Part shown: in pieces, positions 38,296 through 64,000 of the stretch | Layout of the letters: each line of letters opens with the position of its first letter | Position numbering within the stretch: position 1 is the first letter of the stretch | NCBI GenBank assembly: GCA_038245905.1 | Contig: JBBRRY010000002.1 | Span: forward strand, 32,001-96,000 | Direction of reading: 5' to 3' | DNA: 64,000 nucleotides | Source of the DNA: Thermoanaerobaculia bacterium | GTDB taxonomy: Bacteria; Acidobacteriota; Thermoanaerobaculia; UBA5066 | Made by a program: the position numbers and the translations under genes | The notes under the pieces: generated by a model | Told to the model about the DNA's origin: nothing | The model's input: the letters and a program-made list of their open reading frames with translations, nothing else | Database searches by the model: none

Positions 38296-39840
38296 CTATG
38301 AGGCCGCCTTCCAACGTCCCTCGAGTCGTCGCGCGAGGCGCGCGAGAGGGATCGACATCGCGAGATACAGGCCCGCGCACAAGGCGCCGGGGACAGCCCA
38401 GCTCGCGATGTTCGTCGCGAAGATGGCCGTCTGCTTCGTGAGCTCGACGACTGTCACGACGGAAACGAGCGACGAGTCCTTCAGGAGAGCGACGAAGTCG
38501 TTCGTCATGGGAGCGAGCGCGAGCCGGAAGGCCTGCGGCCCGCGAACGAGGCGGAGGACTTGCCCCTCCGTGAGGCCGAGCGTCCGCGCGGCCTCGAGCT
38601 GTCCCTTCGGCACGGCCTCGAGCGCGCCCCGGTAGATCTCGCTCTCGTACGCGGCGTAGTTCAGCCCGAGGCCGAGAAGCGCCGCGACGAACGCGGGCAG
38701 GCGCACGACGGACGAGAGCCCGTAGTAGAGGACGAAGAGCTGGAGGAGAACCGGCGTCCCGCGCGTGATCTCGACGTAGGCCGTCAGGAGCAGGCGGACC
38801 GGCGCGTTCCCGTAGACGCGCCCGCTCGCGATCGCGACGCCGAGGGCGACCGCCAGCGCCATCGCGAGGCACGAAAGCGAGATCGTCACGAAGGCGGCCT
38901 TCAGCAGAGAAGGGAGATAGGAGATGACGAGGGAAAGAGATGAAGAAGAGAAGATCTTCTTAGAAGGTGAAGAAGGCAACGGGAGCTTCTCGCCCGCCCG
39001 AAGCGTTTCAGCGGCGCCTGCAGCCTCTTTACCATTCAAAGAAATCTCTCTCTTCTCTTCCTCTCTTTTCTCAAATGCCGCCTGCTGGTCGTCCCAGACA
39101 TTCCACTTCTCGAAGATCCTTCGCAGCGTCCCGTCCTTCATCGCCGCGACGAGAATTGCGTCGATGCCGTCGCGGAGCGCCGCGTTCTTCTTCGAGAGGA
39201 CGCCGACGTACCACCCCGTCGAGGCGGTGCCGGGCTGGATCGCGATTCCCGCGACGCGGCGCACCGAGCGCGCCGCGAGGACGTGGTCGAGGAGGACGGC
39301 GTCGAGGCGGCCGTTCGCGAGGTCCTCGTATGGATGGACGTCGTCGTCGTAGGAGACCGGGAGGATCCCGTCCGTCTTCCCGGCCGCGACGAGCAAGTCC
39401 CATGCGATCGTCCCCGCGAGCGTGCCAACCCTCCGGCCACGGAGTTCCGCGAGCGTGCGTAAGCGCGAAACGTCGGCCTCTCGCACCGTGAGGACCTCGC
39501 GAAACTCGAAGTACGGGGCCGTGACAGAGAGTGAGGCGCGCCGCTGGGGGGTGTCTTCGATTCCCGAGAAGCCGATGTCGAAGTCGCCGCGCGCGGCCGA
39601 CTGGTCCAGCGACTGAAATGCGACCTGGACGAAAACAGATGTTCTCCCGAGACGTCTTGCGACGAGATTCGCGATCTCTACGTCGAAACCGCGCACCTTC
39701 GAGGGATCGGCCGGGTCGGCTTCGACAAAGGGCGCGCCCCCTTCCGCGTCGCCGCCCCAGCGGAGCACGAGCGGATCCGGCACGGCCGCGCGCGCCGCGC
39801 CGGGGAGCAGGAGGATCCCGGCGAGGACGGCCCGGATCAA
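38296..39840 (-). CDS. Polar amino acid ABC transporter, fused substrate-binding domain and permease
   Basis: TTG start overlapping the psd stop; WGGDAEGGAPF, GFDVEIA, GRLDAVLLD; permease YVEITRGTPVLLQL, AAYESEIYRG, GQLEAARTLG, LLKDSSL. Confidence 0.9.
   Translation of the reverse strand: MIRAVLAGILLLPGAARAAVPDPLVLRWGGDAEGGAPFVEADPADPSKVRGFDVEIANLVARRLGRTSVFVQVAFQSLDQSAARGDFDIGFSGIEDTPQRRASLSVTAPYFEFREVLTVREADVSRLRTLAELRGRRVGTLAGTIAWDLLVAAGKTDGILPVSYDDDVHPYEDLANGRLDAVLLDHVLAARSVRRVAGIAIQPGTASTGWYVGVLSKKNAALRDGIDAILVAAMKDGTLRRIFEKWNVWDDQQAAFEKREEEKREISLNGKEAAGAAETLRAGEKLPLPSSPSKKIFSSSSLSLVISYLPSLLKAAFVTISLSCLAMALAVALGVAIASGRVYGNAPVRLLLTAYVEITRGTPVLLQLFVLYYGLSSVVRLPAFVAALLGLGLNYAAYESEIYRGALEAVPKGQLEAARTLGLTEGQVLRLVRGPQAFRLALAPMTNDFVALLKDSSLVSVVTVVELTKQTAIFATNIASWAVPGALCAGLYLAMSIPLARLARRLEGRWKAAS
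38952..39046. repeat. Inverted pair of an AT-rich TTC-N3-GAA motif with purine/pyrimidine flanks (locus A)
   Basis: AGATCTTCTTAGAAGG at 38952 and CCATTCAAAGAAATC at 39032; the latter is identical to 49476-49490. Confidence 0.6.
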
Positions 39841-40691
39841 GACGACAGGCTCCCGAGCCGCTCCCCCATCTTCACGGGCCCGAGGCCGCGCGCCGGATTC
39901 CACTCCACGGCTCTCGGCCCGCCGACGAGCAAAACGACGGTCGATCCGAGCTCGAAGACGCCGAGATCGTCGCCCGGCGCGCACGCAACGGAGGCGACCT
40001 CGAGGCGGCCGCGCCGCGGCAGCGCGCGCCCCGCGAGCCAACGCGGGTCGATCACGACGCCGCCCACGTGCGTCGCCGCGACCATGACAGCGGCCACGAC
40101 GAGTCCTTCGGCCTCCCGGACGCCACGCGCAATCCAGTAGGCGCGCCGGTTCCTCACGTAGAGCCGCGGCGTCGCGGCCGTGGAGGCCGCGTTGACAGGC
40201 CAGAGCTCCCCTTCCACGCGTCCGACCGCGACGCACGCTCCCGAGAGCGGGACGTGAATGCGGTGGTAGTCCTTCGGGGCGAGATACAGCGCCAGGTAGC
40301 GGGCGCTGGTGAACTCGGATGCGCAGGCGTCGTCGTCGAGGAGCTCGGCGAGGCGGTACGGCAGGCCTTTGGCCTGGATGAGCGTGCCCTCCTCAACCCG
40401 CCCCTCGGCGATCACGAGCCCGTCGATCGGCGAATTGATTCCGCCCGCCACGACGGGCGCTTGCGGCCTCAGACCCGGCCTCAGCCGCCGCGTGAAGAAA
40501 TCGAGAAACGACACGTAGGTGCCGAGATCCTTCTCCGCTTCGTCGAGGTTCGCGCCGAATGCGGCCGCGAACCGGCCGAGGAGCGGGCGGCGCAAGCGCA
40601 CGGGGAGGCGCAGCCGGGCGAGCGCTCCCACCGCGAGAGAGCCTGCCTTCTTGGGATAGAGCCGAAGGAGGCGGAGATCCGCTACGTCCAT
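39837..40691 (-). CDS. psd: Phosphatidylserine decarboxylase proenzyme
   Basis: FFTRRL, SPIDG, QAKG..Y, YLAPKDYHRIH, LGVFELGSTVVL (LGST autocleavage site). Confidence 0.93.
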   Translation of the reverse strand: MDVADLRLLRLYPKKAGSLAVGALARLRLPVRLRRPLLGRFAAAFGANLDEAEKDLGTYVSFLDFFTRRLRPGLRPQAPVVAGGINSPIDGLVIAEGRVEEGTLIQAKGLPYRLAELLDDDACASEFTSARYLALYLAPKDYHRIHVPLSGACVAVGRVEGELWPVNAASTAATPRLYVRNRRAYWIARGVREAEGLVVAAVMVAATHVGGVVIDPRWLAGRALPRRGRLEVASVACAPGDDLGVFELGSTVVLLVGGPRAVEWNPARGLGPVKMGERLGSLSS

Positions 40692-40716
40692 GCAAGGGCT
40701 CCGAGCCGAACTCGTG

Positions 40717-41103
40717 TCACTTGGCCTCCGGGACGGCCGCAATCGCCTGGATCTCGATCTGCCAGCCGCCGCGGAACTCGTTGACGGGCACGATCGCGCG
40801 AGCCGGGCGGTGCTCTCCCATGACGCGCGCGTAAACCGCGTTGACGCGGCCCCAGAACGCGGCGTCCGAGATGTAAATCGTCATCTGGAGGACGTGCGCG
40901 AGGTCGCTTCCCGCGGCCGCGAGGACGGCCTCGACGTTTCGGAGCGCACGCTCGGTCTGCTCTTCCAGCGTCTCCGGAAGCGCCTCGGGCCTCGCGGCAT
41001 CCTTCCCGAGCTGCCCGGCGACGTAGACGAGCCCTCCGTGGACGATGCCTTGCGAATAGTGGCCCGCGGGCGCGGGCGCATCCTTCGTGAAGACGGCCTC
41101 CAC
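40717..41103 (-). CDS. RidA/YjgF/UK114-family protein
   Basis: APAPAGHYSQ, VYVAGQL, VNAVY, RPARA, IEIQAIA. Confidence 0.92.
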   Translation of the reverse strand: MEAVFTKDAPAPAGHYSQGIVHGGLVYVAGQLGKDAARPEALPETLEEQTERALRNVEAVLAAAGSDLAHVLQMTIYISDAAFWGRVNAVYARVMGEHRPARAIVPVNEFRGGWQIEIQAIAAVPEAK

Positions 41104-41104
41104 G

Positions 41105-42052
41105 TCAGACCTTCTTCTTGAACGCTTCCGTGGCCTCGACGAGCGCGCTCGAAATACCCGGCTCGTCCGCCGCGTGGCCGGCCGCGGGCACGACCACGAG
41201 CCGCGCCTCCGGCCAGGCCGCCGCGAGGTCCCACGCGGACTGCATCGGGCAGACCAGGTCGTAGCGGCCCTGCACGATGACGCACGGCAGCGCGCGCAGG
41301 CACCACGCGCCCTTCAGGAGCTGGTCGTCGCTCTCGAGGAACGTCCCGTTGATGAAGTAGTGGGCCTCGATGCGCGCGAGCGCGATCTCGCGCTGGAGCT
41401 CCTCCGGATCGGGACCCTTCGTGTCCGGGATGAGATGGCTCGCCGTCCCCTCGAAAGCGTTCCACGCGAGTGCGGCCGCCGTTCGCTCCTCCTCGTCCTC
41501 GGAGGTAAGCCGCCGGTGGTATGCGCGCACGATGGAACCGCGCTCGCGCACCGACAGGGGCTCCACGAAGGCCTCCCAGGCATCGGGCCAGATGCGGCGC
41601 ACGCCGTCGGCGAAGCTCCACTCGAGCTCCGACTTACGGGCGAGGAAGATCCCACGAAGGATGAGGCCGGTGACACGCGCGGGATACCTCTCGGCATACG
41701 CCAGGCCCAGCGTCGAGCCCCACGAGCCTCCGAACACGAGCCACTTCTCGATCCCGAGGTGAACGCGGATCTTCTCGGTGTCCGCCACGAGATCCCACGT
41801 CGTGTTCTCGCGCAGCTCGCCGAGCGGCGTCGATTTCCCAGCCCCGCGCTGGTCGAAGAGGATGACCCGCCAGAACGTAGGGTCGAAGAACCGGCGGTGG
41901 ATCGCGGAAACGCCGGCGCCCGGGCCGCCGTGAAAAAAGACGACCGGGGGGCCGGACGGATTGCCCGCTTCCTCGACGTGCAGCTCGTGGAGGTCCGAAA
42001 CGCGCAGCCGATACGTCCGGTTCGGCTCGATCTCGGGAAAGAGAGGCGTCAT
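41105..42052 (-). CDS. pip: Proline iminopeptidase
   Basis: HGGPGAG, FDQRGAGKS, FGGSWGSTL, LRGIF, QGRYDLVCP, AGH. Confidence 0.95.
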   Translation of the reverse strand: MTPLFPEIEPNRTYRLRVSDLHELHVEEAGNPSGPPVVFFHGGPGAGVSAIHRRFFDPTFWRVILFDQRGAGKSTPLGELRENTTWDLVADTEKIRVHLGIEKWLVFGGSWGSTLGLAYAERYPARVTGLILRGIFLARKSELEWSFADGVRRIWPDAWEAFVEPLSVRERGSIVRAYHRRLTSEDEEERTAAALAWNAFEGTASHLIPDTKGPDPEELQREIALARIEAHYFINGTFLESDDQLLKGAWCLRALPCVIVQGRYDLVCPMQSAWDLAAAWPEARLVVVPAAGHAADEPGISSALVEATEAFKKKV

Positions 42053-42077
42053 GAGGGGATTATGAGCGACGCCGCCT

Positions 42078-45000
42078 TCAGGGCGACCCGGCGACCGCGT
42101 CCCAGAAGTCGCATCGGGACGCGCGTACACCCTCTCCCGATGTGGTCACGTTGTCGAGGTCGAGATACGTGTCGAGGGCCGGGTCGTAGCGGGGCCAGAG
42201 CGTCGCGCCAGGTCCGTTCGGGTTTCCGTTCGCGGCGAACCGGGACCAGTACCCGTTCATCGCGTCCGAAAGCGCCCGCTCCCGCGCGGAAGGCGTGAAG
42301 CCAGGAAACTTGTCGAGGGTGCCGAATACGAAAGGGAGCTCCAACGAGTGGTACGCCCCGTACGAGGCGGCGGAGGTGGAATCCAGCGACTTCGTGAAGA
42401 AGTAGCGGAACACGGGCTCGGCCTGCCCGGCCGCGGCCGCGCGCGCGATCCGGCGAGCCGGGCACGTGTAGACCTCGTCGGTCGTCGCCCCGATCCAGGC
42501 CTTCTGCGGCGTCGCGAAGGCGCTCGAGGGGTACTCCGCGAGGACGCGCGCGCCAAGCGTGAATCCATAGAGCGAGAAAATGGCCGACCGATAGGCCGCG
42601 TCTGAGGCGAACGAAGGAGCGTCGAGAGAGGTCTCATCCGCGTTCGCACCGACGAGAAGCGGAACATGGTGGTGTCTGCCGGCCGACAGCGCGTCGAGCG
42701 GGGAGTCGAGGAGGACGAACCCGTCCACGTTGGGGCCGTACGAGTTGACGTCCGGCCGGGCCGCCGACACGAGCGTCTCGGTGCTTTGGGCGCGAAGACA
42801 TGCGACCACGTCGGCCGTGCCCCCGCAACCCGCGGCCTCGACGATCGTCGCGCCGGCCGACTCCGCCTCCGGGAGCGTCGGCTGGCTGCAGTGCCCGCTT
42901 TCGATGAGTGCACGCGTGAAGAGCCCCTTCGCGAGCGGCGAGGCGAGGAGAGAGCAGACATCCTCGCCTCCCGCCGACTCGCCCCCGATGAGCACGCGGT
43001 CCGGGTCGCCTCCGAATGCCGCGATGTTGCGCCGCACCCACTGGAGTGCGGCGATCTGGTCGAGAAGGCCGTCGTTCCCGGAAACACCGTGCGCGCTCTC
43101 GGCGTCGAGGGCGGGGTGCGCGAGAAAGCCGAGCGAGGAAAGCCGGTAGTTGATCGTCACCACGACGACTCCGCTCTTTTCCAGGAAGGTCTGGCCGTCG
43201 TATACCGGGAGACTCCCCGCGCCCTGCACGTTTCCACCGCCGTGAATCCAGAAGACGACGGGAGCGCGCGTGGACGGTGGCGTGGCCCGCGCCCAGACGT
43301 TGAGCACGAGACAGTCTTCCGATCCGACGACCCGTCCTGCGCCGTCCGGCTGTGGGCAGATGCTGCCGAATCCCGACGCGTCGCGGACGGTCGCCCACGG
43401 GTCCGGGGTCACGGGGGGACGGAACCGCAACGGTCCGAGCGGAGGGGCGGCGTATGGAATTCCGCGGTAAACCGCCACCTGGTCGTCGAGGAAACCGCGC
43501 ACCGTGCCTCCCGACGTCGGCACGACGGCCGGGACGGGTGCGACGTCGAGCGTGAGCGCGGCCATCCCCGTGCCGCAGGAATTCGCCGCGAAAAGCCGAT
43601 AGGTCGTCAAGGCCGCGGGAGTCAGCGTGAGGGTGCCGTCGGGCGCCGACGCGAACCCGCCCGGCTCGGCGCGCACGGCGGCGCCGCCCGCGGAGAGGAA
43701 GACCGTCACGGGCGTTCCCGGCGTCGCCCGCGCCGGCGAGATCGCGAGCACGACGATCGAGGGCACCGCGCAGGCAGGAGGTTTCGCAAGCGTCGGGGTC
43801 ACCACGGCGTCGCCCGTGACGTTGTCGATGACGCTCGCGTAAGCGTCGGCGGCCCCCGCCGTCACCACGACGTCGACGCGCGTTCCCCGTGGCGCGCTCG
43901 CGACCTCGAACCATCCACCGAGACTCTGCTGCCGCCACTCGGTCGGCCTGAGGGAAAAAGCCGCGCTTGCGATCCGGGCGCCGGAAAGGTCGCGGAGCAC
44001 GAGCAGACCGCTTGCACCCACCGGACCGCCGAGCAGGGCGACGTTCGTCCTGAAGCCTGGCGAAGCCCCGGAATGCGACAGCCCAGGGAGCGTGGCCTCG
44101 CGCCCCGCCGGGACGAGGCCGGTCGTCCAGGCAATGGCGCGTAAGCCCGCGCTGAACCCGCCCGGGCGGACGCCCGTGGGATCCACATTGCTCGTGCGCC
44201 CCGCCGCGAGGAACGGCGCGGATGCCCGAAGGAGGATCGCGCCGGCGACGCCATCCCCCAGAGCGAAGCCACCCGGTCCGAGGACGTCGTCGATCTTCAG
44301 CAGAGAGCGCGGCGGCAGAGTGCGTGTGAAGGAGGACGCCGCTGGGAGGCCGACCGGTGTGAACGTAACGACGAGCGGAGCCAGCCCGGGGTTGAAGACC
44401 GCAAGATCCGTCGACCAGTGCGTTCCGTTCAGGCCGCCGGCACGCGCCGCACCGTCCAGGAGGATGTCGCCCGGCTCGAACGGCATCCGCTCGGCGAGAA
44501 CGGCGATGCCGTCTCCCGTGACGTTGTCGACGACGGACGTGAAGCCGGTCGCGCGGCCGCGCGTGACCTCCACGGTGACACGACCCGTTGCCAGCTCCGG
44601 GCCGGCGGCGAAATCGGCCACCGAAGCCTGCCACGTGACCGGATTCGCCGAGGCAACCCGAGTCGAGCCTCGCGGGAAACCCGATTCGTCCCAGAGCGTC
44701 ACGATCGCCTCGCTGTCGGAATCGAGGAGGGCGACGTTCACGTTCGTGCGGTAACCGCGCAAGGGGTCGGTGGAATTCGAGAGCCAGATCGCATGGCCCG
44801 TCTCCCCCGCCCGGAGCGTCCCCGAGTCGCCCACAGCCGTCAGTCCGACGCCATACGTCGCCGCGGGATCCTTCACGTTCGCCGTCGTTCCGCGCACGAC
44901 GACCGGAGCGTCGCTCAGAATCGTGAGCGTGCCGAACGTGCCTTCGAGGCCGAACAAATCCGAAAGTGCGTTCGAGAAGGCCAGGGACTCACCTGCCAGG

Positions 45001-45248
45001 AGGACCCGCGTGAGAGGAGCCGGGGCGGGGATGCCTCCCGAGGGGACGAGCCCGATCCGGACGGTCGTCTCGACCGGGCCGGGATTCACGAGATACACGC
45101 TCGAGTGAAAGAGCGTCCCATTCTGCCCGCCTGTATTCGCGACGCCGGGAAGAAAGAGCGTGGCGGCGGGCGCCGCGGAAGCCAGACCGGCGAGGCAAGC
45201 GGCGCTCACGAGGCGGCTCACGACGGGTTGGACGCCTCCTGAGCGCAT
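42078..45248 (-). CDS. Secreted type-B carboxylesterase/lipase with tandem N-terminal extracellular beta domains
   Basis: GIPYAAPP, SEDCLVLNVW, WIHGGG, INYRL, GESAG, YH..ELPFVFG; N-terminal GQNGTLFHSSVYLVNP and GLNGTHWSTDLAVFNP repeats. Confidence 0.88.
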   Translation of the reverse strand: MRSGGVQPVVSRLVSAACLAGLASAAPAATLFLPGVANTGGQNGTLFHSSVYLVNPGPVETTVRIGLVPSGGIPAPAPLTRVLLAGESLAFSNALSDLFGLEGTFGTLTILSDAPVVVRGTTANVKDPAATYGVGLTAVGDSGTLRAGETGHAIWLSNSTDPLRGYRTNVNVALLDSDSEAIVTLWDESGFPRGSTRVASANPVTWQASVADFAAGPELATGRVTVEVTRGRATGFTSVVDNVTGDGIAVLAERMPFEPGDILLDGAARAGGLNGTHWSTDLAVFNPGLAPLVVTFTPVGLPAASSFTRTLPPRSLLKIDDVLGPGGFALGDGVAGAILLRASAPFLAAGRTSNVDPTGVRPGGFSAGLRAIAWTTGLVPAGREATLPGLSHSGASPGFRTNVALLGGPVGASGLLVLRDLSGARIASAAFSLRPTEWRQQSLGGWFEVASAPRGTRVDVVVTAGAADAYASVIDNVTGDAVVTPTLAKPPACAVPSIVVLAISPARATPGTPVTVFLSAGGAAVRAEPGGFASAPDGTLTLTPAALTTYRLFAANSCGTGMAALTLDVAPVPAVVPTSGGTVRGFLDDQVAVYRGIPYAAPPLGPLRFRPPVTPDPWATVRDASGFGSICPQPDGAGRVVGSEDCLVLNVWARATPPSTRAPVVFWIHGGGNVQGAGSLPVYDGQTFLEKSGVVVVTINYRLSSLGFLAHPALDAESAHGVSGNDGLLDQIAALQWVRRNIAAFGGDPDRVLIGGESAGGEDVCSLLASPLAKGLFTRALIESGHCSQPTLPEAESAGATIVEAAGCGGTADVVACLRAQSTETLVSAARPDVNSYGPNVDGFVLLDSPLDALSAGRHHHVPLLVGANADETSLDAPSFASDAAYRSAIFSLYGFTLGARVLAEYPSSAFATPQKAWIGATTDEVYTCPARRIARAAAAGQAEPVFRYFFTKSLDSTSAASYGAYHSLELPFVFGTLDKFPGFTPSARERALSDAMNGYWSRFAANGNPNGPGATLWPRYDPALDTYLDLDNVTTSGEGVRASRCDFWDAVAGSP

Positions 45249-45260
45249 GAACCGGTGAGC

Positions 45261-46778: not shown

Positions 46779-46804
46779 GAGAAGGCGATTATGCCCGGAG
46801 CGGC

Positions 46805-47956: not shown

Positions 47957-49014
47957 GCGACGGGCTCTATTCTCAGCGTGGATCCCCGAATCGTCTCGAT
48001 GAAACGCGCTCCGAACGCGAGCGACGGCGTGTGGACCCCCGGCGGCACGGAACCGGCGAGGACGCGCTTCGCGATCGCGACCGACGTCTCCGCCGTCAGC
48101 CCGTAGCCCTCCAGCGTCTCGAGCGCGCCGGTCACGGAGCGCCCGCCCTTCGTGACGCGCCCCCACAGGAACGAGCGCTCCCGCTCGCGCTCCTCGGCCG
48201 TCGGGCCCTTCACGTTTCGCTCGATACGCCTCATGAGGAAGGACTGCACGAGAGGCAGGCCGAGGACGGGGGCAAACCGGCGCATGCGCCGCGCGTTCGC
48301 GACCGCCGAGGGTGGGACCGCCATGTAGACCTCGATGTTCGGGATCCCGGTCGACCGCCAGGCGGTCGCGAGGTCGCCCCACGGAATCGTCATCGCGAGG
48401 CGGGGTTTGTCCGGAAGCGGGACGTCCATCGTCTTCCATGCCGACGGCACTCTCGTGAGCTTCCCTTCGACTCGCACGAGTCCGCCCTTGTGGGCCCCCT
48501 CGACCATCGTCTTCATCGTCCCCGCGCTCGGCTTGAAGCCCCGGAAAGCGAGCGTGAGCGTCTCCGCCCCCGGCAGGGCTTCCGAGAGCGCCTTCGCGAG
48601 GCAGTCCGACGGCACGACGTCGAACCCCGTGCCCGGAAGCACAGAGATTCCCGCCTTCTTCGCGTCCGCGTCGCGTGCGAACGCGGCCTCGAATACCGCG
48701 ACCTCGCCCGTGATGTCGAGATAGGCGGTCCGTGCGCGGAGGCACGCGTCGAGCGCCGGGGCGCTCGTTTTCGAAAACGGTCCCGCCGCGAGGAGCAGCG
48801 CGGAAAACGGCTCGAGCAGACGCGCCACGGTGCCGGGATCCTCGAGGCCGAAACAGAGGCTCTTCAGACCGTGCGCCTTCGCGATCGGCTCGACGGCCGC
48901 CGCGCTTCGGCCCGCGAGGATGGGCCGAAGCCCCTCGCGCAGCGCGACTTCGAGAATGAGCTTCCCCGTGTAGCCGTTCGCGCCGTAGAGCAGCAGGCCC
49001 GACTTTTCGGTCAT
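47953..49014 (-). CDS. Saccharopine dehydrogenase-like NAD(P)-binding oxidoreductase
   Basis: LYGANGYTG, LAGR, AAGPF, YLDITGE, GFDVVPSD, IPWGD. Confidence 0.88.
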   Translation of the reverse strand: MTEKSGLLLYGANGYTGKLILEVALREGLRPILAGRSAAAVEPIAKAHGLKSLCFGLEDPGTVARLLEPFSALLLAAGPFSKTSAPALDACLRARTAYLDITGEVAVFEAAFARDADAKKAGISVLPGTGFDVVPSDCLAKALSEALPGAETLTLAFRGFKPSAGTMKTMVEGAHKGGLVRVEGKLTRVPSAWKTMDVPLPDKPRLAMTIPWGDLATAWRSTGIPNIEVYMAVPPSAVANARRMRRFAPVLGLPLVQSFLMRRIERNVKGPTAEERERERSFLWGRVTKGGRSVTGALETLEGYGLTAETSVAIAKRVLAGSVPPGVHTPSLAFGARFIETIRGSTLRIEPVA

Positions 49015-50423
49015 GAGGGGGTTCCTTCCAGAGAGCCGGGCGCGCTTCCCAGCCGCACGCCGCAGACGTTCGTGAGATCACGGCACGCGTCGACCTCGTC
49101 CTCGGCGCCGCGCGCCGCCTCGTCGGACAGAACGTACCGGAATCCCTCGTCCTGAGGAAACACGATCCCGTTTTCGAGGACACGGCGCGGCCCACCGACG
49201 CCGAAGAGGCCGGAGTCCATCACGATCCACATCCAGTCGGCCTCGCGGGCGAGACCAGCGTGGGCCAGGACGTCGCCGAGGCGGAATGCGGGGATGGAGG
49301 AGAGAGAAGAGTCGCTTGCTGAAGAGGGGGAAGGAGAGAAAGAGATTTTCTTAGAAAGGGATCGAGAGAGAGCCTCGAAGCCTCTTGGGTCGAATGCGCG
49401 CGTAGCGCCCTTCCCGTCTTCGAGCGTCAGGAGCGGGGCATCCGCGGGCACGAGCGCGTCCGCCAGCACTCTTTCCCATTCAAAGAAATCCCCGGTTCCC
49501 TCCCCCGTCTCCGGGTCCTTCAGGATCACGTCCACCCGGCTGTCGCGCCGCCACGACGTCGGCTCGCTCGTGAGCCTTCCGCCCGCGATCTCGTGGAGCC
49601 TCCAGCCCGCCGTCGTGTGAAAGAGGCCCTTGGCGCGTGCGACGCGCCCCTTCGTGAGCGTACCTGCGCGGAGCGCTTCGAGGGCGGCCATGAGGCGATC
49701 CGCGTCGAAGACCCTCTCCGGCGGGTACGCAACGCCCTTCCCGACATGTCCCTCGGAGGAATTCGGATTTCCATGGAGGTGGTGTGGCGCCGGCGTCTCG
49801 AGAAGGGTCGCGGCGGCAGCGGTCGCGGGGCGCTCGAGATCCCAGACCTCGTCGGGGAGGATGGCGTGCTTCGCCCGCACGATCAGCAGCTTCGGCGGCG
49901 CCAACGCGCGGACGAACTCTTCACTTCTAAGAATCTCTTCTTCCGAGGCGACATCGCAGCGATTTACGACGATCACGTCGGCAACGTCGATCTGGTCCCG
50001 GAAGAGCGCGCTCTCCGCGTAGGCCTTCGCGAGGTCCTGCTGAGGGTCGAGGATCGTGATGACGGGGCGGACGTCGAAGCGGTTCGCCCAGCGCGGGCCG
50101 CGCAGGAGGTCGACGAGCTCGGACGGCCTCGCGAGCCCGGTCGGCTCGAGGACGAAACGCGTCGGCGCCACGAGGTCGGAAACCTCTTCGAGGGAGGCCT
50201 CGAGGTCGGCCATCGCGGTGCAGCAGACGCACCCCCCCGGCACTTCTCGGAGGATGCAGCTTGCGCAGTCCGACAGGAGCGCGCCATCCACGCCGAGCGT
50301 CCCGAATTCGTTCACGACGACCGCGATCCGCTCGCGATCGGCCCGGCGCGCGAGGAGATTCTTGACCGCGGTGGTCTTCCCGGCGCCCAGGAACCCCGAC
50401 AGCACGTGGAATGGAATCCTCAC
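49011..50423 (-). CDS. COG0523/CobW-family G3E metallochaperone GTPase with a C-terminal extension
   Basis: SGFLGAGKTT, VNEFG, GGCVCC, EPTGLARP, NRCD, ARAKG, DSRVDVI. Confidence 0.9.
   Translation of the reverse strand: MRIPFHVLSGFLGAGKTTAVKNLLARRADRERIAVVVNEFGTLGVDGALLSDCASCILREVPGGCVCCTAMADLEASLEEVSDLVAPTRFVLEPTGLARPSELVDLLRGPRWANRFDVRPVITILDPQQDLAKAYAESALFRDQIDVADVIVVNRCDVASEEEILRSEEFVRALAPPKLLIVRAKHAILPDEVWDLERPATAAAATLLETPAPHHLHGNPNSSEGHVGKGVAYPPERVFDADRLMAALEALRAGTLTKGRVARAKGLFHTTAGWRLHEIAGGRLTSEPTSWRRDSRVDVILKDPETGEGTGDFFEWERVLADALVPADAPLLTLEDGKGATRAFDPRGFEALSRSLSKKISFSPSPSSASDSSLSSIPAFRLGDVLAHAGLAREADWMWIVMDSGLFGVGGPRRVLENGIVFPQDEGFRYVLSDEAARGAEDEVDACRDLTNVCGVRLGSAPGSLEGTPS
49343..49490. 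repeat. Inverted pair of the TTC-N3-GAA motif (locus B); an additional single copy at 49924-49940
   Basis: AGATTTTCTTAGAAAGGG at 49343 is the exact reverse complement of 63711-63728; CCATTCAAAGAAATC at 49476 equals 39032-39046. Confidence 0.6.
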
Positions 50424-50487: not shown

Positions 50488-52443
<1,956 letters not shown>

Positions 52444-52449
52444 CCCCGC

Positions 52450-53942: not shown

Positions 53943-53943
53943 C

Positions 53944-54918: not shown

Positions 54919-54922
54919 GCCC

Positions 54923-55333
54923 TCACGCCCGCTCCCAGACCTCCTCGACGACGACGTCCGGATGCAGGGAGCGCCTCACGGGACACGTCTTGCCAGCGTT
55001 GACGAGCTTCTTGAAGTCCTCGTCGCTGCAGGGTGACGCGATGCGGTAGCGCGCCACGAGCTTCGCGATGCGCCGCGGGGGCTCCTGCGTCATGTGCTTC
55101 TCGATCTCGAACGTCACGCCCGTCACGGAAATCCCGCTCCGCGTCGCGTAAAGGCTCAGCGTCGTCGCCGCGCACGCGGCGAGCGACGCGGCGCAGAGAT
55201 CCGTAGGCGAGAAGCGGCTTCCGTCGCCGCCGTTGTCCGTCGGCGCCGTCGTCTCGAGGAGCGCGCCGGAAGGGCCATGGCGGAGTTCGGCTCCAGTCGG
55301 AGACGTGAGTCTGCCGGAGATTGAAACGCTCAT
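54923..55333 (-). CDS. OsmC-family protein
   Basis: APTDNGGDGSRFSPTDL...LAAC, CPVRRSLHP. Confidence 0.9.
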   Translation of the reverse strand: MSVSISGRLTSPTGAELRHGPSGALLETTAPTDNGGDGSRFSPTDLCAASLAACAATTLSLYATRSGISVTGVTFEIEKHMTQEPPRRIAKLVARYRIASPCSDEDFKKLVNAGKTCPVRRSLHPDVVVEEVWERA

Positions 55334-55348
55334 GGCGGTGAGTCTAGT

Positions 55349-58506: not shown

Positions 58507-58554
58507 GCGCCGGCGGCGTCCGTCAACTGCTCAAGCAATTGAGCGCCCCTGGTC

Positions 58555-59130
58555 TCAGCCCTTCTTCTTCGCGGGAGCCGCCTTCGCGAGAGGCTCGACC
58601 CACATCTCCTCCACGCGGCGCTGCTTGTCCTCGGACATGCCCATGCGATAGCGAAGGCGGATGCCGCACTGGGGAACGGGCCAGGACGACACTCCCGGAT
58701 CGGACGCGACGGGAGTTCCCTTTCCGTAGCGCTCGAGGATGCCGTCGTAAAGACCGGAGGGCGGGTCGAGGAGGTAGTGCAGCGACACGACCTTCGCGTC
58801 GAGGGCGTCGGACGCGTAGGTCACGTCGACTTTCCACGGCCGCCCCTCGGGGGTGTGCACGACTTTCAGGTCGCGGACGACTGTCTTCTTCGACGGCTCG
58901 TGCAGCGCCATGCGCTCGAACGAAAATGCGCGCGTCTGCCCGATCTCAAGGCCGGCCATCCCCGGGCAGGGGGGCGGCGTGGGCTGCGCCGCGGCAGCGC
59001 CAGTTGACGAGGCGGCCGCGCCGGCCTGAGGGCCAGTCTGTTTCGTTTGAACCTGAATCTGCGCGATCGCCGGAGGTGCGGCGAACCCCGCGAGAAAGAG
59101 GCTCGTGCAGAGGAACGGGGAAACTTTCAT
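58555..59130 (-). CDS. Secreted hypothetical protein
   Basis: RBS AGGAG; signal peptide MKVSPFLCTSLFLAGFAAPPAIAQ; no recognisable domain. Confidence 0.65.
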   Translation of the reverse strand: MKVSPFLCTSLFLAGFAAPPAIAQIQVQTKQTGPQAGAAASSTGAAAAQPTPPPCPGMAGLEIGQTRAFSFERMALHEPSKKTVVRDLKVVHTPEGRPWKVDVTYASDALDAKVVSLHYLLDPPSGLYDGILERYGKGTPVASDPGVSSWPVPQCGIRLRYRMGMSEDKQRRVEEMWVEPLAKAAPAKKKG

Positions 59131-59232
59131 CGAAACTCCTGAACGGGATGCCCGGCCGCGCCGGCACGGGGTCTCTCGGTGACGCGAGGAGCGTGCCAGA
59201 CCCGAATTCGAAGAGTGTACCAGCCGGCTCCC

Positions 59233-60663
59233 TCAGGGGGCCGTCGCAAACTCGAGGAGAACCCGTCTCATCCGGTCGATCCCGTCGACGTAAAGCGGCA
59301 GCGAAATCCCCTCATTCACGTGATGGATCGTCGACGCATCGTAGATGCTCACGGCGAAAGGAGACACCCCGTAGGCGCGCAGGCCGCGGGCCCGGATGGC
59401 GGCCGCCGACGTGACCTGCCCGCTCAGGATGTAGGGCCCGACGGGCGCGCTCTCCGGGTCCAGGCCAAACACGTTGGCGATCGCGCGATATGCGTTTCCC
59501 TCGGAGGGGCTCGACACGCAGTCCCTGGTCTCGAGGACGAGACGGAGGCGGAAGCCTCTTGCCAGGGCCCAGCCCTCGATCTCGGCGCGGGCGGACGCGA
59601 CCGGGCTTCCCGGAAGCAGCGTCTTCACGACGTGCAGGGAAAAGCCTTCAGCGATCCGTTCCACCTTGCTCACGTAAATGCTGTCCTTGAGGAGCGAACG
59701 GTAGACCTCGGGAACGAACTTCCAGAACTCCGCTTGAGGGCCGAGCTTCTCGGCTCCGTCCGTCATGTAGCGGCCCCAGACATCCGACCGCGAAGGCGCG
59801 ATGAACCGCAGGAACTCCCGCACGGCGGGGACCACGCGAACGGGCTGCTCCAGATCACGGGCCTTCAGGAATTCGCGAAACTCCTCGAGTGTTCTTTCCT
59901 CGGGTGACAGGACGTCCACCGAGAAAACTGCCTTCTGCATGGTCTCGATGCCGAAGCGCTCTACGTGCTGGTTCTTGACCTCGTTCACTCCCCCCTCGTT
60001 GAACACGTCCGTCACTCCTGCAAGGAGGTCTGGCCGGTGGTCGAAGAGCCAGCCCATACCGAGGTCTTCCCGAAGCGTCTCCTCTCCCGACTCGACGACG
60101 AAAACGATGTCGCGGAGGGGCACGAGGCCCGCACGCGTGAGCGAGGTCATCGCAAGGAGGTTCGCGACCGTCTGCCCCTTCATGTCGAGCGTCCCCCGGC
60201 CGAAGAGGTGGTCGCGGTCGAGGCCGGTGCCGCGTTCGGCCGCGAAGGGCGGCTTGGTCCATGCGCCAAGGTCTCCCGCGGGGACGACGTCCGCGTGATT
60301 CAGGAGGGCGAGCGCTCCGTCCGGAGCGCGGCCCGTGATTCGGGCAACGAGGATCGGGCGCTCCGGGTCGGCGCCGGTGATCGTCACGGGGATTCCCTCG
60401 CACACGAGGAACCGGGCGAGGAACTCGATCGCGGGACGTGTGATTCCGGGCGGATTCGTCGTGTCGATGCGTACGTACTCTACGAGAAGCTTCACGGCCT
60501 CCGTTTCCATGGCCGCGTCCGCCTCGACATCCATCCGGCGAATCGTGAGCGGCGTCGCGAGCCGCGACACGAGCGCCGGAAACCCCCAGAGCGCAAGGAC
60601 GGCAAAAACCGCGGCACCGCCATAAAGGGCGAGGCGCCGCCTTCCGTTGGAGCCCAGCTTCAT
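59233..60663 (-). CDS. M20/M25/M40-family metallopeptidase with an N-terminal membrane anchor
   Basis: VRIDTTNPPG, NHADVVP, GRGTLDMKG, GEE, NEGG, IHHVNE; start overlaps the upstream stop. Confidence 0.88.
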   Translation of the reverse strand: MKLGSNGRRRLALYGGAAVFAVLALWGFPALVSRLATPLTIRRMDVEADAAMETEAVKLLVEYVRIDTTNPPGITRPAIEFLARFLVCEGIPVTITGADPERPILVARITGRAPDGALALLNHADVVPAGDLGAWTKPPFAAERGTGLDRDHLFGRGTLDMKGQTVANLLAMTSLTRAGLVPLRDIVFVVESGEETLREDLGMGWLFDHRPDLLAGVTDVFNEGGVNEVKNQHVERFGIETMQKAVFSVDVLSPEERTLEEFREFLKARDLEQPVRVVPAVREFLRFIAPSRSDVWGRYMTDGAEKLGPQAEFWKFVPEVYRSLLKDSIYVSKVERIAEGFSLHVVKTLLPGSPVASARAEIEGWALARGFRLRLVLETRDCVSSPSEGNAYRAIANVFGLDPESAPVGPYILSGQVTSAAAIRARGLRAYGVSPFAVSIYDASTIHHVNEGISLPLYVDGIDRMRRVLLEFATAP

Positions 60664-62765
60664 GCGTTCCCGAACGCAGGCCGGCGCCGCGGAACGAGCA
60701 GGGCGGTGGCGAGCGCCAGCGCGGTGGCTGCAGAGATCATCGCCCCGATCTTCACCCACCGCGTGTCGGGCCGCAAACGCACCGCATGACGCCCCGGAGG
60801 GACGGCCAGGCCCGCGAACCCGAACGCGACCCGCGAGACGCGGGCCGGGCGGCCGTCGATCGTGGCCTCTTCCGCGGCCTCCCACAGCCGGTACAGCATG
60901 AGAAAGCCCGGACCCGGCCCCTCGACCTCGACGTCGAGAAAGAGCCCCGAGGGGCGGTCGTCGACCGCAAGGATCCGGCCCGCCGCGGGCGCGGCAGAAA
61001 CCCCCGGGACCGCTTCGTCGGCGTACGCGGTGTCGACGGGAAAGCCTTCCTCGAGCAGCCGCTTGAACACCGCGCGCCGGTCCGTAGATGCCACGAGCCT
61101 CCCTGCGAACCGGTACGGCGGAACCGGGTTCACGATCCGCTCGAGGCGCGGCCGGTAGCGCCCGTCCTCTCCCCGTTCGCTGCGGACGATCGCCGTGACG
61201 CCGACGCCCCGTACAAGGCGCTGGGCGAGCGGCGGCGTTTCCCGAACGGCGCGGGACAGAAGGCTCGACCACTCGAACGCCTCGAGGGGAAGCGACAGGT
61301 CGTAATCGACCTCGAACTGATAGCCGACCCCGAACAGCGATCCGTATGCCGGGAGCAGAGACTGCCGGCCGACGCGGGTCGCCGACTCGAGGTCACGCAG
61401 GTCGTACACCGGGACGGGCGCATAGCTGTCCCGGAAAAAAAGGCGCGGCGGGGGCGCGCCGGGGGCGACCGGGACGAGTGAGGACAGGAGCGCCGGAACG
61501 CGCGCGATCACGGAAGCGTCGTCGAGCGGCACGAGGCGCCGCGCCATGCCCTCGCGATCGATGAAAATCGCGAAAGCGAGGAGCAGCAAGACGACGCGAA
61601 GGGCGCGGGGCGAGACGGTTTCCGCGAGGCGCCTCAGCCCGAGCGCGGCGAGCCAGGCGAGACCGAATCCCGCGAGGATCAGGTGCCTTTCCGGATAGCG
61701 GATCCAGCCGAGAGGCGGCACGACCCACCTCACGAGTCCGAAGACCGGCGTCGCGTCGCCGAGCGCGAGGAGGAAGCCCGCCAGCGCGAGAAGCGCCGCC
61801 GCGATCCGTCCAGGCCCTTTCCGGACGAGTCCCGCGAGGACGAGGACCCACGCGACCCGCCCCGGCGTCACGGAGGGGAGGTACGGATAATCCGGTATCC
61901 GGGGTGCCGTCGCGACGACCGTCCAGTCGGCGATCATCCCGTCCGACGCGAGATCCGCGAGGCGCGCCAGCGCAAACGGCTTTAAGGAACTCTTGTCGAA
62001 GGTCCGTCCACTCTCCGGCGAACGGCTGCTGCGCGCCGCGGTCGCGCCCCCCGGAATGACGGAGACCGCGGCAAGACCACCAGCCACGAGAGCGCTGATC
62101 GCCAGGGCCGCGAGAGGCCGCGCGCGCCCGCGCCACCCGCTGTGTTCCTCCCACGCCGCCCAGGAGACCGCCACCGCGACAAACGCCGCATAGAGCACGA
62201 ACTCGGGCGCCGTCGCGAGAAGAATCAGCGCCGCCGCGATCGCCACCTTCGCCACCTCGCGCGTACGCGGCGCCTTCACGAGGTCGAAGACGAAGGCGGC
62301 GAACCACGGAAGAATCGAGAGAGCGGACAGCGTGGGCGGAAACGTGGCGACGGACACCGCCGTTCCGCCAAGCGCGAAGACGAGGCCGGCCACGGCCGCG
62401 GGCGCGCGCGGAACACCGAGGCGCCGCGCGAACGCGGCTAATCCCGCGAGGGCGACGGCGAGGTGGAGAAGGATCCACGCCTTCATCGCCCCGCCGAGCG
62501 GCAGCAGCAGGAAGAGAACGTTCGCGGGGTCGAAGGGCGCCGCCGACAAGCCGCCGAGAAGCGGCGACCCGCCCCAGCGGAATCGATCCACCCATGGCAG
62601 CTCCCCGCGCCCGATCGCTTCGACGAGATGCGCCTTCAGCGGAAAGAAATAGAACAGGAGGTCCCGGCCCACCGGAATGCCGGTGCCGAAAAAATCGCGA
62701 AACGGCAGGAGCGCGAGAAGGAGCGCCCCGAGGAGCGGAAGCAATTCGCGGAGACGTGCCTTCAC
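60660..62765 (-). CDS. YfhO-like polytopic membrane protein (GT-C-like)
   Basis: RDLLFYFFPLK...GELPW, IRYPER, C-terminal ATIDGRP...VPPGRHAVRL. Confidence 0.78.
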   Translation of the reverse strand: MKARLRELLPLLGALLLALLPFRDFFGTGIPVGRDLLFYFFPLKAHLVEAIGRGELPWVDRFRWGGSPLLGGLSAAPFDPANVLFLLLPLGGAMKAWILLHLAVALAGLAAFARRLGVPRAPAAVAGLVFALGGTAVSVATFPPTLSALSILPWFAAFVFDLVKAPRTREVAKVAIAAALILLATAPEFVLYAAFVAVAVSWAAWEEHSGWRGRARPLAALAISALVAGGLAAVSVIPGGATAARSSRSPESGRTFDKSSLKPFALARLADLASDGMIADWTVVATAPRIPDYPYLPSVTPGRVAWVLVLAGLVRKGPGRIAAALLALAGFLLALGDATPVFGLVRWVVPPLGWIRYPERHLILAGFGLAWLAALGLRRLAETVSPRALRVVLLLLAFAIFIDREGMARRLVPLDDASVIARVPALLSSLVPVAPGAPPPRLFFRDSYAPVPVYDLRDLESATRVGRQSLLPAYGSLFGVGYQFEVDYDLSLPLEAFEWSSLLSRAVRETPPLAQRLVRGVGVTAIVRSERGEDGRYRPRLERIVNPVPPYRFAGRLVASTDRRAVFKRLLEEGFPVDTAYADEAVPGVSAAPAAGRILAVDDRPSGLFLDVEVEGPGPGFLMLYRLWEAAEEATIDGRPARVSRVAFGFAGLAVPPGRHAVRLRPDTRWVKIGAMISAATALALATALLVPRRRPAFGNA

Positions 62766-64000
62766 GGGAGCACCCGCGGCCGAGCGAAGAGGGCGATCGC
62801 CAGGAGCGACGCGAGAGAGAGAGCGGCGCCGGAAGAGAATGCGGGGTTCTCGTATGCGAGTGCGATCTCGTGGTCTCCCCCCGGGACGTTCACGGCCATC
62901 AGGTATCCGTCCGAAGCGTGGACCTGAAGATCCGCTCCGTCCAACCGGGCATGCCAGTTCGGGTCGAACGTCCGCCCGACGAAGAGCACGGCGGCCGGAA
63001 GGCCGACCCGCACTCTGAGGCGGGCCCGACCTGCCCGGCGCTCCTCAACCGTGACGGTCCCGGCACCCCTCGGGAGGACGGCGAACTCTGCCCGCGCGTT
63101 TTCGACGTGCAGGATCCGGTCCTCTCCGAAGCGGCCGATCTCGACGACACCGGGCGGGTCGGGCGGCGCCGCCGCCGTCCTCGTGACCGTGACCCCCAGC
63201 GTCCGCAGGCGCGCGACCTTTTCCTCTCCCCATCGGAGTCGGGCGAGCGCCCGGGCGAAGCGCGCCGACGGCGCCGCCGTCATGCGGTCTATGTCGTTCT
63301 CTCCGGTGTATCGGATCCCGAACGCGACGCCGACGGCAGGGTGCAACGGATCGAGCCCGCCGGCCTCGCGAGTCCGGCGCGCGACCGTCGACGCGTCGTC
63401 GGCGCCGTCATCGTAAAAGCGGCCGGATCCCGCCTGCGCGCGCACGAGCGCGACCTCGGGCGTCTCCTTACGGTAAAGGTCCGGTGGACCGGCGGGGCAC
63501 GTCCCCGCCACGCGCCGGCTCGCATCGGCAATGAACAGAAGAGAAAGAATTCCTGCGAAGAGAGAGACGGGAAGCCGGTTGTGCGAGACGAGCCACCCGA
63601 GGGCGGCGACGAGAGCAAGAGTAAGACTTCCTAGAAGGAGGAGGGGACGGAGAGTCGCGGCCACAGCCGCGGCGGACGTGGGTCCGGAGCCCAAGCCGAC
63701 GCCCCATAAACCCTTTCTAAGAAAATCTTCCGCGCCGATCGCCAACGCGAGAAGCGAGCCGCAGACGACGGCCAATCCAGTCGCGCCCATCCGAAGCAGA
63801 TTGAAAGCCTGTCGTCGTGCCTCCACGTCCGCGAAGAAGACGCGGTCCACGCCGGCCGCCGCCGCCGCCGCGAGCGCAAACGTCACGAGGAGCCACCACT
63901 TTTCCGGATATCGAATGACCGGAAAGGCCTGCGCGAGGAAAGAGGCGCCTGGCAGAAACCGTCCGAACGAGAGCACCGCGCCCCCGAGAGCGAGAAGAAT
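62762..64000 (-). CDS. YfhO-like membrane protein, C-terminal part (start lies beyond the window end)
   Basis: Frame open to the window edge; IRYPEKW, TFDPNWHARLDG, VPGGDHEIALAY. Confidence 0.78.
   Translation of the reverse strand: MLLALGGAVLSFGRFLPGASFLAQAFPVIRYPEKWWLLVTFALAAAAAAGVDRVFFADVEARRQAFNLLRMGATGLAVVCGSLLALAIGAEDFLRKGLWGVGLGSGPTSAAAVAATLRPLLLLGSLTLALVAALGWLVSHNRLPVSLFAGILSLLFIADASRRVAGTCPAGPPDLYRKETPEVALVRAQAGSGRFYDDGADDASTVARRTREAGGLDPLHPAVGVAFGIRYTGENDIDRMTAAPSARFARALARLRWGEEKVARLRTLGVTVTRTAAAPPDPPGVVEIGRFGEDRILHVENARAEFAVLPRGAGTVTVEERRAGRARLRVRVGLPAAVLFVGRTFDPNWHARLDGADLQVHASDGYLMAVNVPGGDHEIALAYENPAFSSGAALSLASLLAIALFARPRVLP
63624..63728. repeat. Inverted pair of the TTC-N3-GAA motif (locus C)
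   Basis: AGACTTCCTAGAAGG at 63624 and CCCTTTCTAAGAAAATCT at 63711; purine-rich flank on the left. Confidence 0.55.

Follow-up and report, generated by a model that had tools for sequence, protein, structure and literature searches.

Why an AT-rich motif should recur, largely as inverted pairs, inside unrelated protein-coding genes is the question raised by a 64,000-nucleotide stretch of a Thermoanaerobaculia genome (hereafter the window), in which a first-pass annotation described seven copies. All seven are present (Table 1), with matrix scores of 23-41 bits, and the exact matches reported between them hold: the 18-mer at 49343-49360 recurs as its reverse complement at 63711-63728, and one 15-mer is found at both 39032-39046 and 49476-49490. 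The facing pairs, described as 80-135 bp apart, have core-to-core distances of 78, 131 and 87 nt for pairs 1, 2 and 3, and the translations SKKIF, SKKIS, EDFLRKG, EILRSE and DFFEW were correctly read, with three frames and both orientations in use.

Table 1. Arms of the repeated word and their host genes within the window (cores are 9 nt long).
Feature	Position	Strand	Core	Core position	Score (bits)	Residues read	Description
Arm 1a	38940..38976	+	TTCTTAGAA	38957-38965	41.4	PSSPSKKIF (minus-strand gene)	Purine-rich 5' flank; GGTGAAGAAGG at 3' side
Arm 1b	39024..39060	-	TTCTTTGAA (minus strand)	39035-39043	40.7	EKREISLNGKE	Partner of 1a
Host gene 1	38296..39840	-					Fused solute-binding protein and ABC permease; Pfam SBP_bac_3 and BPD_transp_1
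Arm 2a	49331..49367	+	TTCTTAGAA	49348-49356	38.0	SLSKKISFS	
Arm 2b	49468..49504	-	TTCTTTGAA	49479-49487	34.1	GDFFEWE	Partner of 2a
Unpaired arm	49914..49950	-	TTCTTAGAA	49925-49933	24.6	EEEILRSEE	End of CobW GTPase domain
Host gene 2	49011..50423	-					CobW-family GTPase, CobW_C domain, then pair 2, then tail of ~110 residues
Arm 3a	63611..63647	+	TTCCTAGAA	63628-63636	23.3	PLLLLGSLTL	Weak copy; codes part of hydrophobic membrane segment
Arm 3b	63704..63740	-	TTCTTAGAA	63715-63723	32.2	AEDFLRKGLWG	Partner of 3a
Host gene 3	62762..64000	-					YfhO-like membrane protein; gene continues past window end

Pair 1 occupies the inter-domain linker of its host gene, and sister genera without the motif also have both the binding protein-permease fusion and a linker. 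The tail of host gene 2 has no Pfam match, and the open frame of the gene is kept in 17 of 18 genomes of the genus. The unpaired arm is strong in only 4 of 20 orthologs, and in three other species it has a facing partner of 20-35 bits ~150 nt away. Ser/Lys/Glu-rich linkers do coincide with the motif, as the first-pass annotation observed, but they are not independent features: they are the purine- and pyrimidine-rich flanks of the word read as protein.

Across the 3.8 Mb genome the motif is a ~37-nt AT-rich DNA word with hundreds of copies, mostly inside ordinary protein-coding genes, and each arm runs from a purine-rich run through RRGAT and a near-palindromic core, TTCTT[A/T/C]GAA, to GGTGAAGAGG. 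A fixed 33-nt matrix with a cut-off of 14 bits or more finds 572 copies, as against 7 after triplet shuffling; TTCTTAGAA occurs 149 times, where base composition predicts ~2.4 by arithmetic estimate, and of the exact 11-mer there are 46 forward and 49 reverse copies. A chance origin of the copies is excluded. Genic copies number 422 (74%), and the 150 intergenic copies, lying in the 8% of the genome outside predicted genes, are enriched ~3-fold. No described repeat family fits the word. All 20 genomes of the genus, which comprises uncultured Acidobacteria from soil and sediment, carry it (51-267 exact 11-mers each), as against 0-3 exact 11-mers in each of 141 other genomes of the class. A gene for an HK97-type capsid was found in only one of 41 genomes of the family.

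The first-pass annotation had proposed a signal at the level of DNA and not a protein motif, and this is supported by the use of frames and orientations, by shuffling that preserves the protein and by retained third-position A+T. A codon-shuffled null had been set beforehand as a refuting test, and enrichment persists against it: predicted genes hold 416 matches, whereas two synonymous-codon shuffles, which leave each protein unchanged, give 39 and 51, and shuffling the codon order twice gives 2 and 1. Each of the six frame-orientation classes occurs, and among unpaired genic copies 83 follow the direction of the gene and 86 oppose it. Between genes, core base 6 is A in 100 of the 150 copies; it turns to T or C in the two classes in which an A would give a stop codon (forward frame 3: 1 A, 27 C, 30 T; reverse frame 1: 2 A, 42 C, 41 T). 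Third-codon-position A+T is 0.49 in arms versus 0.14 in the rest of the same gene (20 species, p = 2e-7), and the word is demonstrably kept against the strong G+C pressure of the genome. It is shown to be a genus-specific genomic signal word, and not a mobile element, an RNA hairpin or a protein motif.

Insertion of a miniature mobile element, in the manner of Rickettsia palindromic elements (RPEs) or another MITE, would account for copies in frame in unrelated genes, for inverted arms and for extra Ser/Glu/Lys-rich residues at some sites, and an IS-like repeat at seven contig ends does contain one copy of the word. Precedent exists in the in-frame RPEs of R. conorii, which, in the accessible portion of PMC10969869, are ~150 bp long, account for 44 in-frame insertions in genes and, like the word, are translated within unrelated housekeeping genes. 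RPEs enter whole and code a conserved peptide, whereas here cores replace codons without a change of length, every frame occurs and extra residues come from the flanks alone, small insertions being confined to the purine-rich flanks. The proposal of a degenerate in-frame miniature element finds no support in the out-group orthologs, which have the same length without the word; L050, the most distant CobW ortholog, has same-length sequence free of it at all three sites, arm 2b included. In the pairs read, the arms enclose ordinary host coding sequence, such as a kinase alpha-C region, which is different in each pair, and in kinase paralogs the pair overlies conserved N-lobe residues. Conservation tails off gradually on both sides of an arm, arm ends show neither an abrupt border nor a target duplication, and spacing varies tenfold over pairs (28-300 bp). 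An inserted element is extremely improbable. Comparison of orthologs shows instead a word that arose in place, through point substitutions in sites that already existed, within and between genes. At roughly 75-86% protein identity, arms 2b and 2a are kept at 14 bits or more in 20/20 and 19/20 genus orthologs, respectively, and among species sites strengthen, weaken and arise at new positions.

The pair is the unit. A genome-wide preference for inverted pairs, likewise set beforehand as a refuting test, was found: adjacent +/- neighbours are no more than 300 bp from each other in 159 of 185 cases, compared with 5 of 169 in the -/+ class and 39 of 160 on the same strand. In the usual arrangement two arms face each other with their GGTGAAGAGG sides turned inward, at a distance of 40-300 bp (median 113). 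Facing pairs take in 318 of the 572 copies, and 86 of the 254 apparent singles have a partner of at least 6 bits on the facing side, as against 10 on the other. Pair spacing shows neither 3-nt periodicity nor 10.5-nt helical phasing (R = 0.088, p ~0.29, n = 159).

Inverted arms invite comparison with single-stranded RNA or DNA hairpins, either REPIN/REP-like elements mobilised by a RAYT transposase or translation-sensitive terminators or processing sites. REP sequences and REPINs are likewise hundreds of short repeats, often inverted doublets of ~100 bp and thus of similar size; in minimum-free-energy structures computed for 146 units, the left arm has a median of 27.5 of its 46 bases paired with the right arm, and behind some of the intergenic arms lie G+C-rich hairpins and runs of T. 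Complementarity of an arm to its partner is, however, no greater than to the arms of other pairs: within-pair identity is 21.53 of 47 positions versus 21.50 between pairs (z = 0.1), so that arms do not co-vary and there is no sign of a selected hairpin. Whole units are less stable than control segments (-64.8 versus -72.3 kcal/mol). The copies, unlike REP, BIME and REPIN sequences, are mostly intragenic and bracket stretches that differ between pairs; Rfam at gathering score returns no match in the window, and the RAYT/IS200 domain (Y1_Tnp, PF01797) gives 0 matches in the 96.4% complete genome, the same search being positive in 6 of 14 control genomes. A hairpin is very unlikely to be what is read.

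Inverted repeats around 40-300 bp within genes are also the layout of intragenic invertons, as far as these are set out in the accessible part of bioRxiv 10.1101/2023.03.11.532203, and a recombinase flipping the between-arm segment could recode or switch off the host gene. The flipped state would nevertheless break more than half of the host genes: simulated inversion leaves 55 of 119 genic pairs free of stops, compared with 63% of 1,706 control segments. Pairs show no phase preference (40, 37, 42) and no within-pair homogenisation of arms, and their host genes include AlaRS, CysRS, DnaJ and genes of histidine and tryptophan biosynthesis. Many of the gaps are too short for recombinase synapsis. 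Over pairs 1 and 2 the contigs assembled from four runs keep one colinear order, with no inverted form among them, although contigs drop rare forms. The probability left to inversion is close to negligible.

Each arm is inferred to be read alone, as double-stranded DNA, by a sequence-specific protein in fixed orientation, and two bound copies of the protein probably cooperate across the variable gap. The word may be either a nucleoid-protein site or a DNA-uptake-like sequence, two options named in the first-pass annotation. Such a reader could be a cytoplasmic chromosome-structuring or regulatory DNA-binding protein (ParB/Noc-like, ribbon-helix-helix or another dimer) that clamps or bridges paired sites under ordinary selection, with no part in uptake. 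The strict facing geometry (159 versus 5) and the arm-by-arm constraint suit a pair of oriented protein sites, the core forms a short palindrome, copies are over-represented between genes, and clumps in some operons could mean local function. Chi and KOPS offer a parallel as in-gene DNA words held by selection on DNA function; these are 8-mers with an orientation skew tied to replication, whereas the arms here are long, paired and without strand bias relative to GC skew (81 versus 71), GC skew being itself uninformative in this genome. Against ordinary binding sites stands the information in the word, which carries ~32-35 bits where 13.7 would suffice for 572 sites, an excess of ~18-20 bits that is inflated because the copies were chosen with the same matrix. 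Spacing over 28-300 bp without helical phasing fits such sites poorly, as do the fall in density from 3.12 to 0.39 matches per 10 kb with rising gene GC3 and the turnover among species, which look opportunistic rather than position-specific; no candidate protein of this kind was found. A chromosomal or regulatory binder is somewhat unlikely.

The leading mechanism for a DNA word built in place and read singly, although put forward only tentatively, is a 'self' tag in DNA uptake and recombination, comparable to the uptake sequences of Pasteurellaceae (USS) and Neisseriaceae (DUS). Under this mechanism better-matching alleles would be preferentially taken up and recombined, and the resulting drive would build a long word of high information content at hundreds of positions that tolerate it; excess information, site turnover, GC3-linked density and presence in every genome of the genus are drive-like features. 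ComEC, a ComEA-like protein, DprA, two PilT/PilU ATPases and pilins are encoded, but these do not discriminate, because they are common genes that also occur in sister genera without the word; two proteins of the minor-pilin cluster and a tandem ComEA-like protein are likewise not genus-specific. The search for a reader protein yielded no candidate, and no ComP-like receptor was identified.

Of known systems, USS and DUS resemble the word most closely, as a likeness rather than a membership. Known uptake sequences act as single copies, DUS pairs being tight terminator hairpins, and to our knowledge all known cases are in Proteobacteria; the host here belongs to the Acidobacteriota. Like them, the word is restricted to one lineage, present in hundreds of copies and in either orientation, built by substitution and retained at orthologous sites, and richer in information than the site number demands, and the genome encodes pilus and competence genes. 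Many copies also occupy coding sequence, in more than one frame and at residues that tolerate change, as do USS and DUS in the accessible portion of PMC2817400, where coding-region shares of 65%, 49% and 34.5% are given and the residues concerned are poorly conserved. Density is lower here, at one copy per 6.6 kb compared with genome totals of 765-1,892 copies in a table of PMC2817400, and the loci are clumped rather than even: the gap coefficient of variation is 1.23, and 268 of 637 10-kb intervals are without any copy while one has 12. Unlike a single-copy unit at roughly kilobase density, the usual unit here is two ~37-nt arms facing each other at 40-300 bp, a geometry not known for USS or DUS, with weak partners beside 86 of the remaining copies.

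A bolder form of the self tag, which we regard as somewhat unlikely, would be a self-recognition system of new design, in which two half-signals, facing each other over a short and freely variable length of host DNA, are recognised by a genus-specific receptor. Both arms of a folded DNA loop might be gripped during pilus pull-in; alternatively, the arms could mark out a segment on which a repair or recombination machine acts. Were such a receptor to exist, drive would have rewritten hundreds of positions in essential genes, and the word would be the first uptake or self-tag sequence outside Proteobacteria and the first to require a pair.

The word accounts for odd low-complexity Ser/Lys/Glu stretches in predicted proteins of the genus, and in practice provides a sharp genus marker for binning and strain tracking. 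It is also a natural example of a long DNA signal laid over coding sequence in all frames, and as such would help in gauging the non-coding capacity of genes. If a protein reads it, a whole genus of abundant uncultured bacteria would mark its own DNA in an undescribed way, at the cost of amino-acid changes in housekeeping proteins, and the word would offer a handle on gene exchange or chromosome handling in Acidobacteriota, a phylum in which these are experimentally almost blank.

The AT-rich word is shown to have evolved in place, to be constrained arm by arm, to occur normally as a facing pair of arms and to be specific to one genus. All seven copies reported by the first-pass annotation were recovered, their cores scoring 23–41 bits, and the exact 18-mer and 15-mer identities it had noted across unrelated genes were genuine by direct reading of the sequence. 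Alignment of copies from the whole genome under study (G000; 113 contigs, 3.80 Mb, 67.8% G+C) gave an arm of ~37 nt, in which a purine-rich run (~70% purine between −30 and −4) leads into RRGAT, the core TTCTT[A/T/C]GAA, GG and a purine-rich GGTGAAGAGG-like tail, with conservation tapering off gradually on both sides. The most frequent cores are TTCTTAGAA (149 occurrences, against ~2.4 expected from base composition), TTCTTTGAA (117), TTCTTCGAA (78) and TGCTTAGAA (37). With a fixed 33-nt seed matrix, on which every count rests (an iterated matrix was discarded after drifting to generic purine-rich sequence), 572 copies were found at a threshold of at least 14 bits and 366 at 24 bits, against 7 and 0, respectively, in a triplet-shuffled genome. 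The word carries ~32–35 bits, a figure inflated by copy selection, against the 13.7 bits needed for 572 sites. The suspected enrichment also held against a codon-preserving null: 416 copies lay in predicted genes, compared with 39 and 51 in two synonymous-codon shuffles that kept the proteins and 2 and 1 in two codon-order shuffles, the gene set (3,158 genes, 92% of the genome) being that of our own simple codon-score gene finder.

Locations of the word copies, host genes and associated features (unprefixed positions are window coordinates, the window being C2:32001–96000; C-numbers are contigs of G000)
Feature	Location	Strand	Remark
Core, pair 1	38957	+	
Core, pair 1	39035	−	
Core, pair 2 (arm 2a)	49348	+	
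Core, pair 2 (arm 2b)	49479	−	
Core, unpaired	49925	−	
Core, pair 3	63628	+	
Core, pair 3	63715	−	
Host gene, SBP_bac_3 + BPD_transp_1 fusion	38296–39840	−	family-wide loci L066–L080
Host gene, CobW-family GTPase	49011–50423	−	
CobW C-terminal tail	49011–49340	−	no Pfam match
Host gene, YfhO-like membrane protein			carries pair 3
PilT/PilU-family ATPase	5347–7872	+	841 residues
Two-ComEA-domain protein	C12:35123–35794	−	L063:1489–2163; 224 residues
Kinase pair	C11:59932–60025		
Kinase pair	C24:11449–11542		
Kinase pair	C24:14193–14286		
Kinase pair	C24:27684–27777		
Head-to-tail array	C7:31719–31775		
Head-to-tail array	C69:2157–2225		
Head-to-tail array	C29:46795–46838		
Contig-end repeat	C7:127161–127397		
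Contig-end repeat	C12:87182–87321		
Contig-end repeat	C29, last 140 nt	−	
Contig-end repeat	C38:29872–30011		
Contig-end repeat	C40	−	
Contig-end repeat	C46:20089–20228		
Contig-end repeat	C71:3860–3999		

Neighbouring copies face each other (+/−) in 185 cases, 159 of them no more than 300 bp apart, compared with 5 of 169 −/+ neighbours and 39 of 160 same-strand neighbours within that distance. Among the 254 copies without a strong partner, a partner of at least 6 bits was present on the facing side in 86 and on the other side in 10, which makes the facing pair the usual unit. Core-to-core distance within pairs has a median of 113 nt (interquartile range 84–148), with no preference modulo 3 (63, 44, 52) and no 10.5-nt periodicity (R = 0.088, p ~0.29, n = 159); 119 of the 159 pairs lie inside a single predicted gene. 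Two or three arms also occur head to tail in short intergenic gaps, at spacings of 24, 30 or 35 nt, and the array on C7 reads in one frame as DFLEREEG-DFLEEEEK-DFFESE followed by a stop.

Several observations place the signal at the DNA level. Genic copies (422 of 572) are spread evenly along genes and occupy all six frame-orientation classes. Of 150 intergenic copies, 100 have A at core base 6; this A is replaced in the two frame-orientation classes in which it would produce TAG or TAA: forward frame 3 (1 A, 27 C, 30 T) and reverse frame 1 (2 A, 42 C, 41 T). A flank-frame test, in which 278 of 564 copies fell into the class ‘weak’, was too crude to be of use. A strand-specific RNA signal is unlikely, since unpaired genic copies run along the gene in 83 cases and against it in 86; no Rfam family matched in the 64-kb window. 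Folds of whole units are weaker than those of equally long adjacent DNA (−64.8 vs −72.3 kcal/mol, n = 142), with inter-arm stretches only marginally more stable than controls (−32.7 vs −31.0). Paired arms match at a mean of 21.53 of 47 aligned positions, against 21.50 for arms drawn from separate pairs (z = 0.1, 1,000 permutations). Each arm is kept to the consensus independently, and this arm-by-arm constraint points to a sequence-reading factor, not to arm–arm pairing, inverted duplication or gene conversion. REPIN/RAYT elements are disfavoured: no RAYT gene was found, the copies are intragenic and the arms do not co-vary. Invertons are also judged improbable; after a simulated flip the reading frame stayed open in 55 of 119 genes, compared with 63% of 1,706 control segments. 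Contigs of four DNA runs are colinear over pairs 1 and 2, and no strand-change joint fell at a pair among the 15 joints listed (105 more lie beyond these), a comparison with little bearing on rare inversions.

Comparison of orthologous host genes bears on how the word arose. In the CobW alignment (20 orthologs; 8 of 28 fetched loci were left out for truncated or interrupted frames), pair 2 reaches at least 14 bits in nearly all genus-like sequences (arm 2b 20/20, arm 2a 19/20), and the most distant ortholog, the out-group L050 (75% identity), lacks the word at all three sites while retaining equal length and similar amino acids, with GDWEALGA where GDFFEWER is found elsewhere. Length varies only on the side of the pyrimidine run, translated as Ser repeats, where species differ by 3–18 codons. 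The ~110-residue C-terminal tail of the CobW-family protein beyond pair 2, well conserved genus-wide (FRLGDV..DWMW.VMDSGLFGVGGPR..), could represent a previously undescribed domain joined to CobW. The single polypeptide that links a family-3 solute-binding protein to its ABC permease is full length in seven genera of the family, so the fusion predates the word now filling its linker. Fusion and linker are present in the motif-less genera g9, g12, g68 and g69; the genus that carries the word has a rewritten linker with ~5–13 extra residues, in an alignment covering 8 of 15 loci (the anchor pattern missed 7, including all five of genus g10). Pfam domain alignments pass directly across the arms in further hosts, including DnaJ, AlaRS, CysRS, LysA, DapB, aspartokinase, HisD, TrpE and TrpC/F; genes around the three hosts in the window are ordinary metabolic genes. 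An RPE or MITE origin, judged by the RPE features given in PMC10969869, is disfavoured for want of any insertion of the word at the CobW or SBP-permease sites. In four paralogous Ser/Thr kinases the pair overlies the conserved N-lobe (beta-3 to beta-4), its arms 93–94 nt apart, with a Ser-rich insertion after the second arm.

Third codon positions of the CobW alignment are 49% A+T within arms against 14% elsewhere (p = 2e-7), with no difference in raw identity at these positions (0.671 vs 0.633, p = 0.32). Only 4 of 20 species have a strong copy of the unpaired arm at 49925. Two additional CobW sites, absent or weak in G000, reach at least 14 bits elsewhere, one in 3 species and the other in 6, and one of the two sites is a facing partner for the 49925 arm. 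Within the genus, then, individual sites appear, strengthen and disappear.

The exact word is restricted to one genus: the 11-mer TTCTTAGAAGG occurs 51–267 times per genome in the 20 genomes of that genus (G000, G001–G018, G130), 0–1 times in 6 genomes from 4 further genera in the family, and 0–3 times in the 135 genomes that make up the rest of the class (a single match in the out-group genome G024), with reversed-pattern controls at 0–7. No AT-rich over-represented word was found in a 400-kb sample of the sister genus g10 (genome G072), by a method to which a G+C-rich dialect is invisible. Along G000, copies form 356 loci (183 single, 140 double, 33 larger) that are clumped rather than even, with a coefficient of variation of 1.23 for the gaps and 268 of 637 10-kb windows free of copies, the fullest holding 12. 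Copy density drops eightfold across the deciles of gene GC3 (arms masked), being 3.12 per 10 kb in the lowest and 0.39 in the highest; candidate causes are tolerance, expression level or a larger supply of near-matches in genes richer in A+T. No strand bias relative to GC skew was detected (81 vs 71), the skew itself being uninformative here (genes 873 vs 863). Seven contigs share the same terminal repeat, beginning TAGCAGGCTG, with a structured non-coding end of ~165 nt bearing one word copy (core TTCTTAGAG), followed by the 3′ end of an opposite-strand gene. The repeat probably belongs to an insertion sequence with a body that was left out of the bin; a single end type was seen, and flanking DNA has no conserved target.

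As to mechanism, each arm would be bound by a protein in fixed orientation, and two bound proteins would cooperate over a flexible distance. The main rival to an uptake or self-tag role, a cytoplasmic protein binding the paired sites, is considered less likely than that role. Uptake and recombination genes are present in the genome, and the type IV pilus named by the first-pass annotation corresponds to a cluster within the window's first 15 kb, comprising two PilT/PilU ATPases, a prepilin peptidase, pilins and a PilX-like protein. One PilT/PilU-family ATPase has a ~480-residue N-terminal extension with HEAT repeats and adjoins a normal 383-residue PilT. A secreted periplasmic protein with two ComEA-type domains (HHH_3, joined by a Ser/Lys-rich linker) has full-length relatives in most genomes of the motif-bearing genus, and was rejected as reader, as it is also found in two motif-less genera (g10, g68) and is not genus-specific; in its gene, the linker is formed by one arm of a facing pair, whose other arm overlaps the start codon and the ribosome-binding site. 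Two minor-pilin-cluster proteins, found in 8 of 8 genera searched, were rejected on the same ground. A gene-transfer-agent packaging signal was dropped because an HK97-type capsid gene was found in 1 of 41 family genomes. Among the matches listed, literature on Thermoanaerobaculia and repeats held nothing on genomic repeats by title or abstract, and the matches listed for uptake sequences or natural transformation made no mention of Acidobacteria.

Unlike the uptake sequences USS (Pasteurellaceae) and DUS (Neisseriaceae), the word has a paired geometry, a lower density and clumped loci; with this mismatch, and candidate readers that are not genus-specific, it is therefore likened to, and not classed as, an uptake word. 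In those two families, 34.5–65% of uptake sequences lie in genes, preferentially at poorly conserved residues (PMC2817400). Tentatively, an uptake or self-tag word may be what this word most resembles in its working, sharing with the products of uptake-bias drive in Pasteurellaceae and Neisseriaceae its length and information content, its origin by substitution, its accumulation where tolerated, its turnover between species and its confinement to a single lineage.
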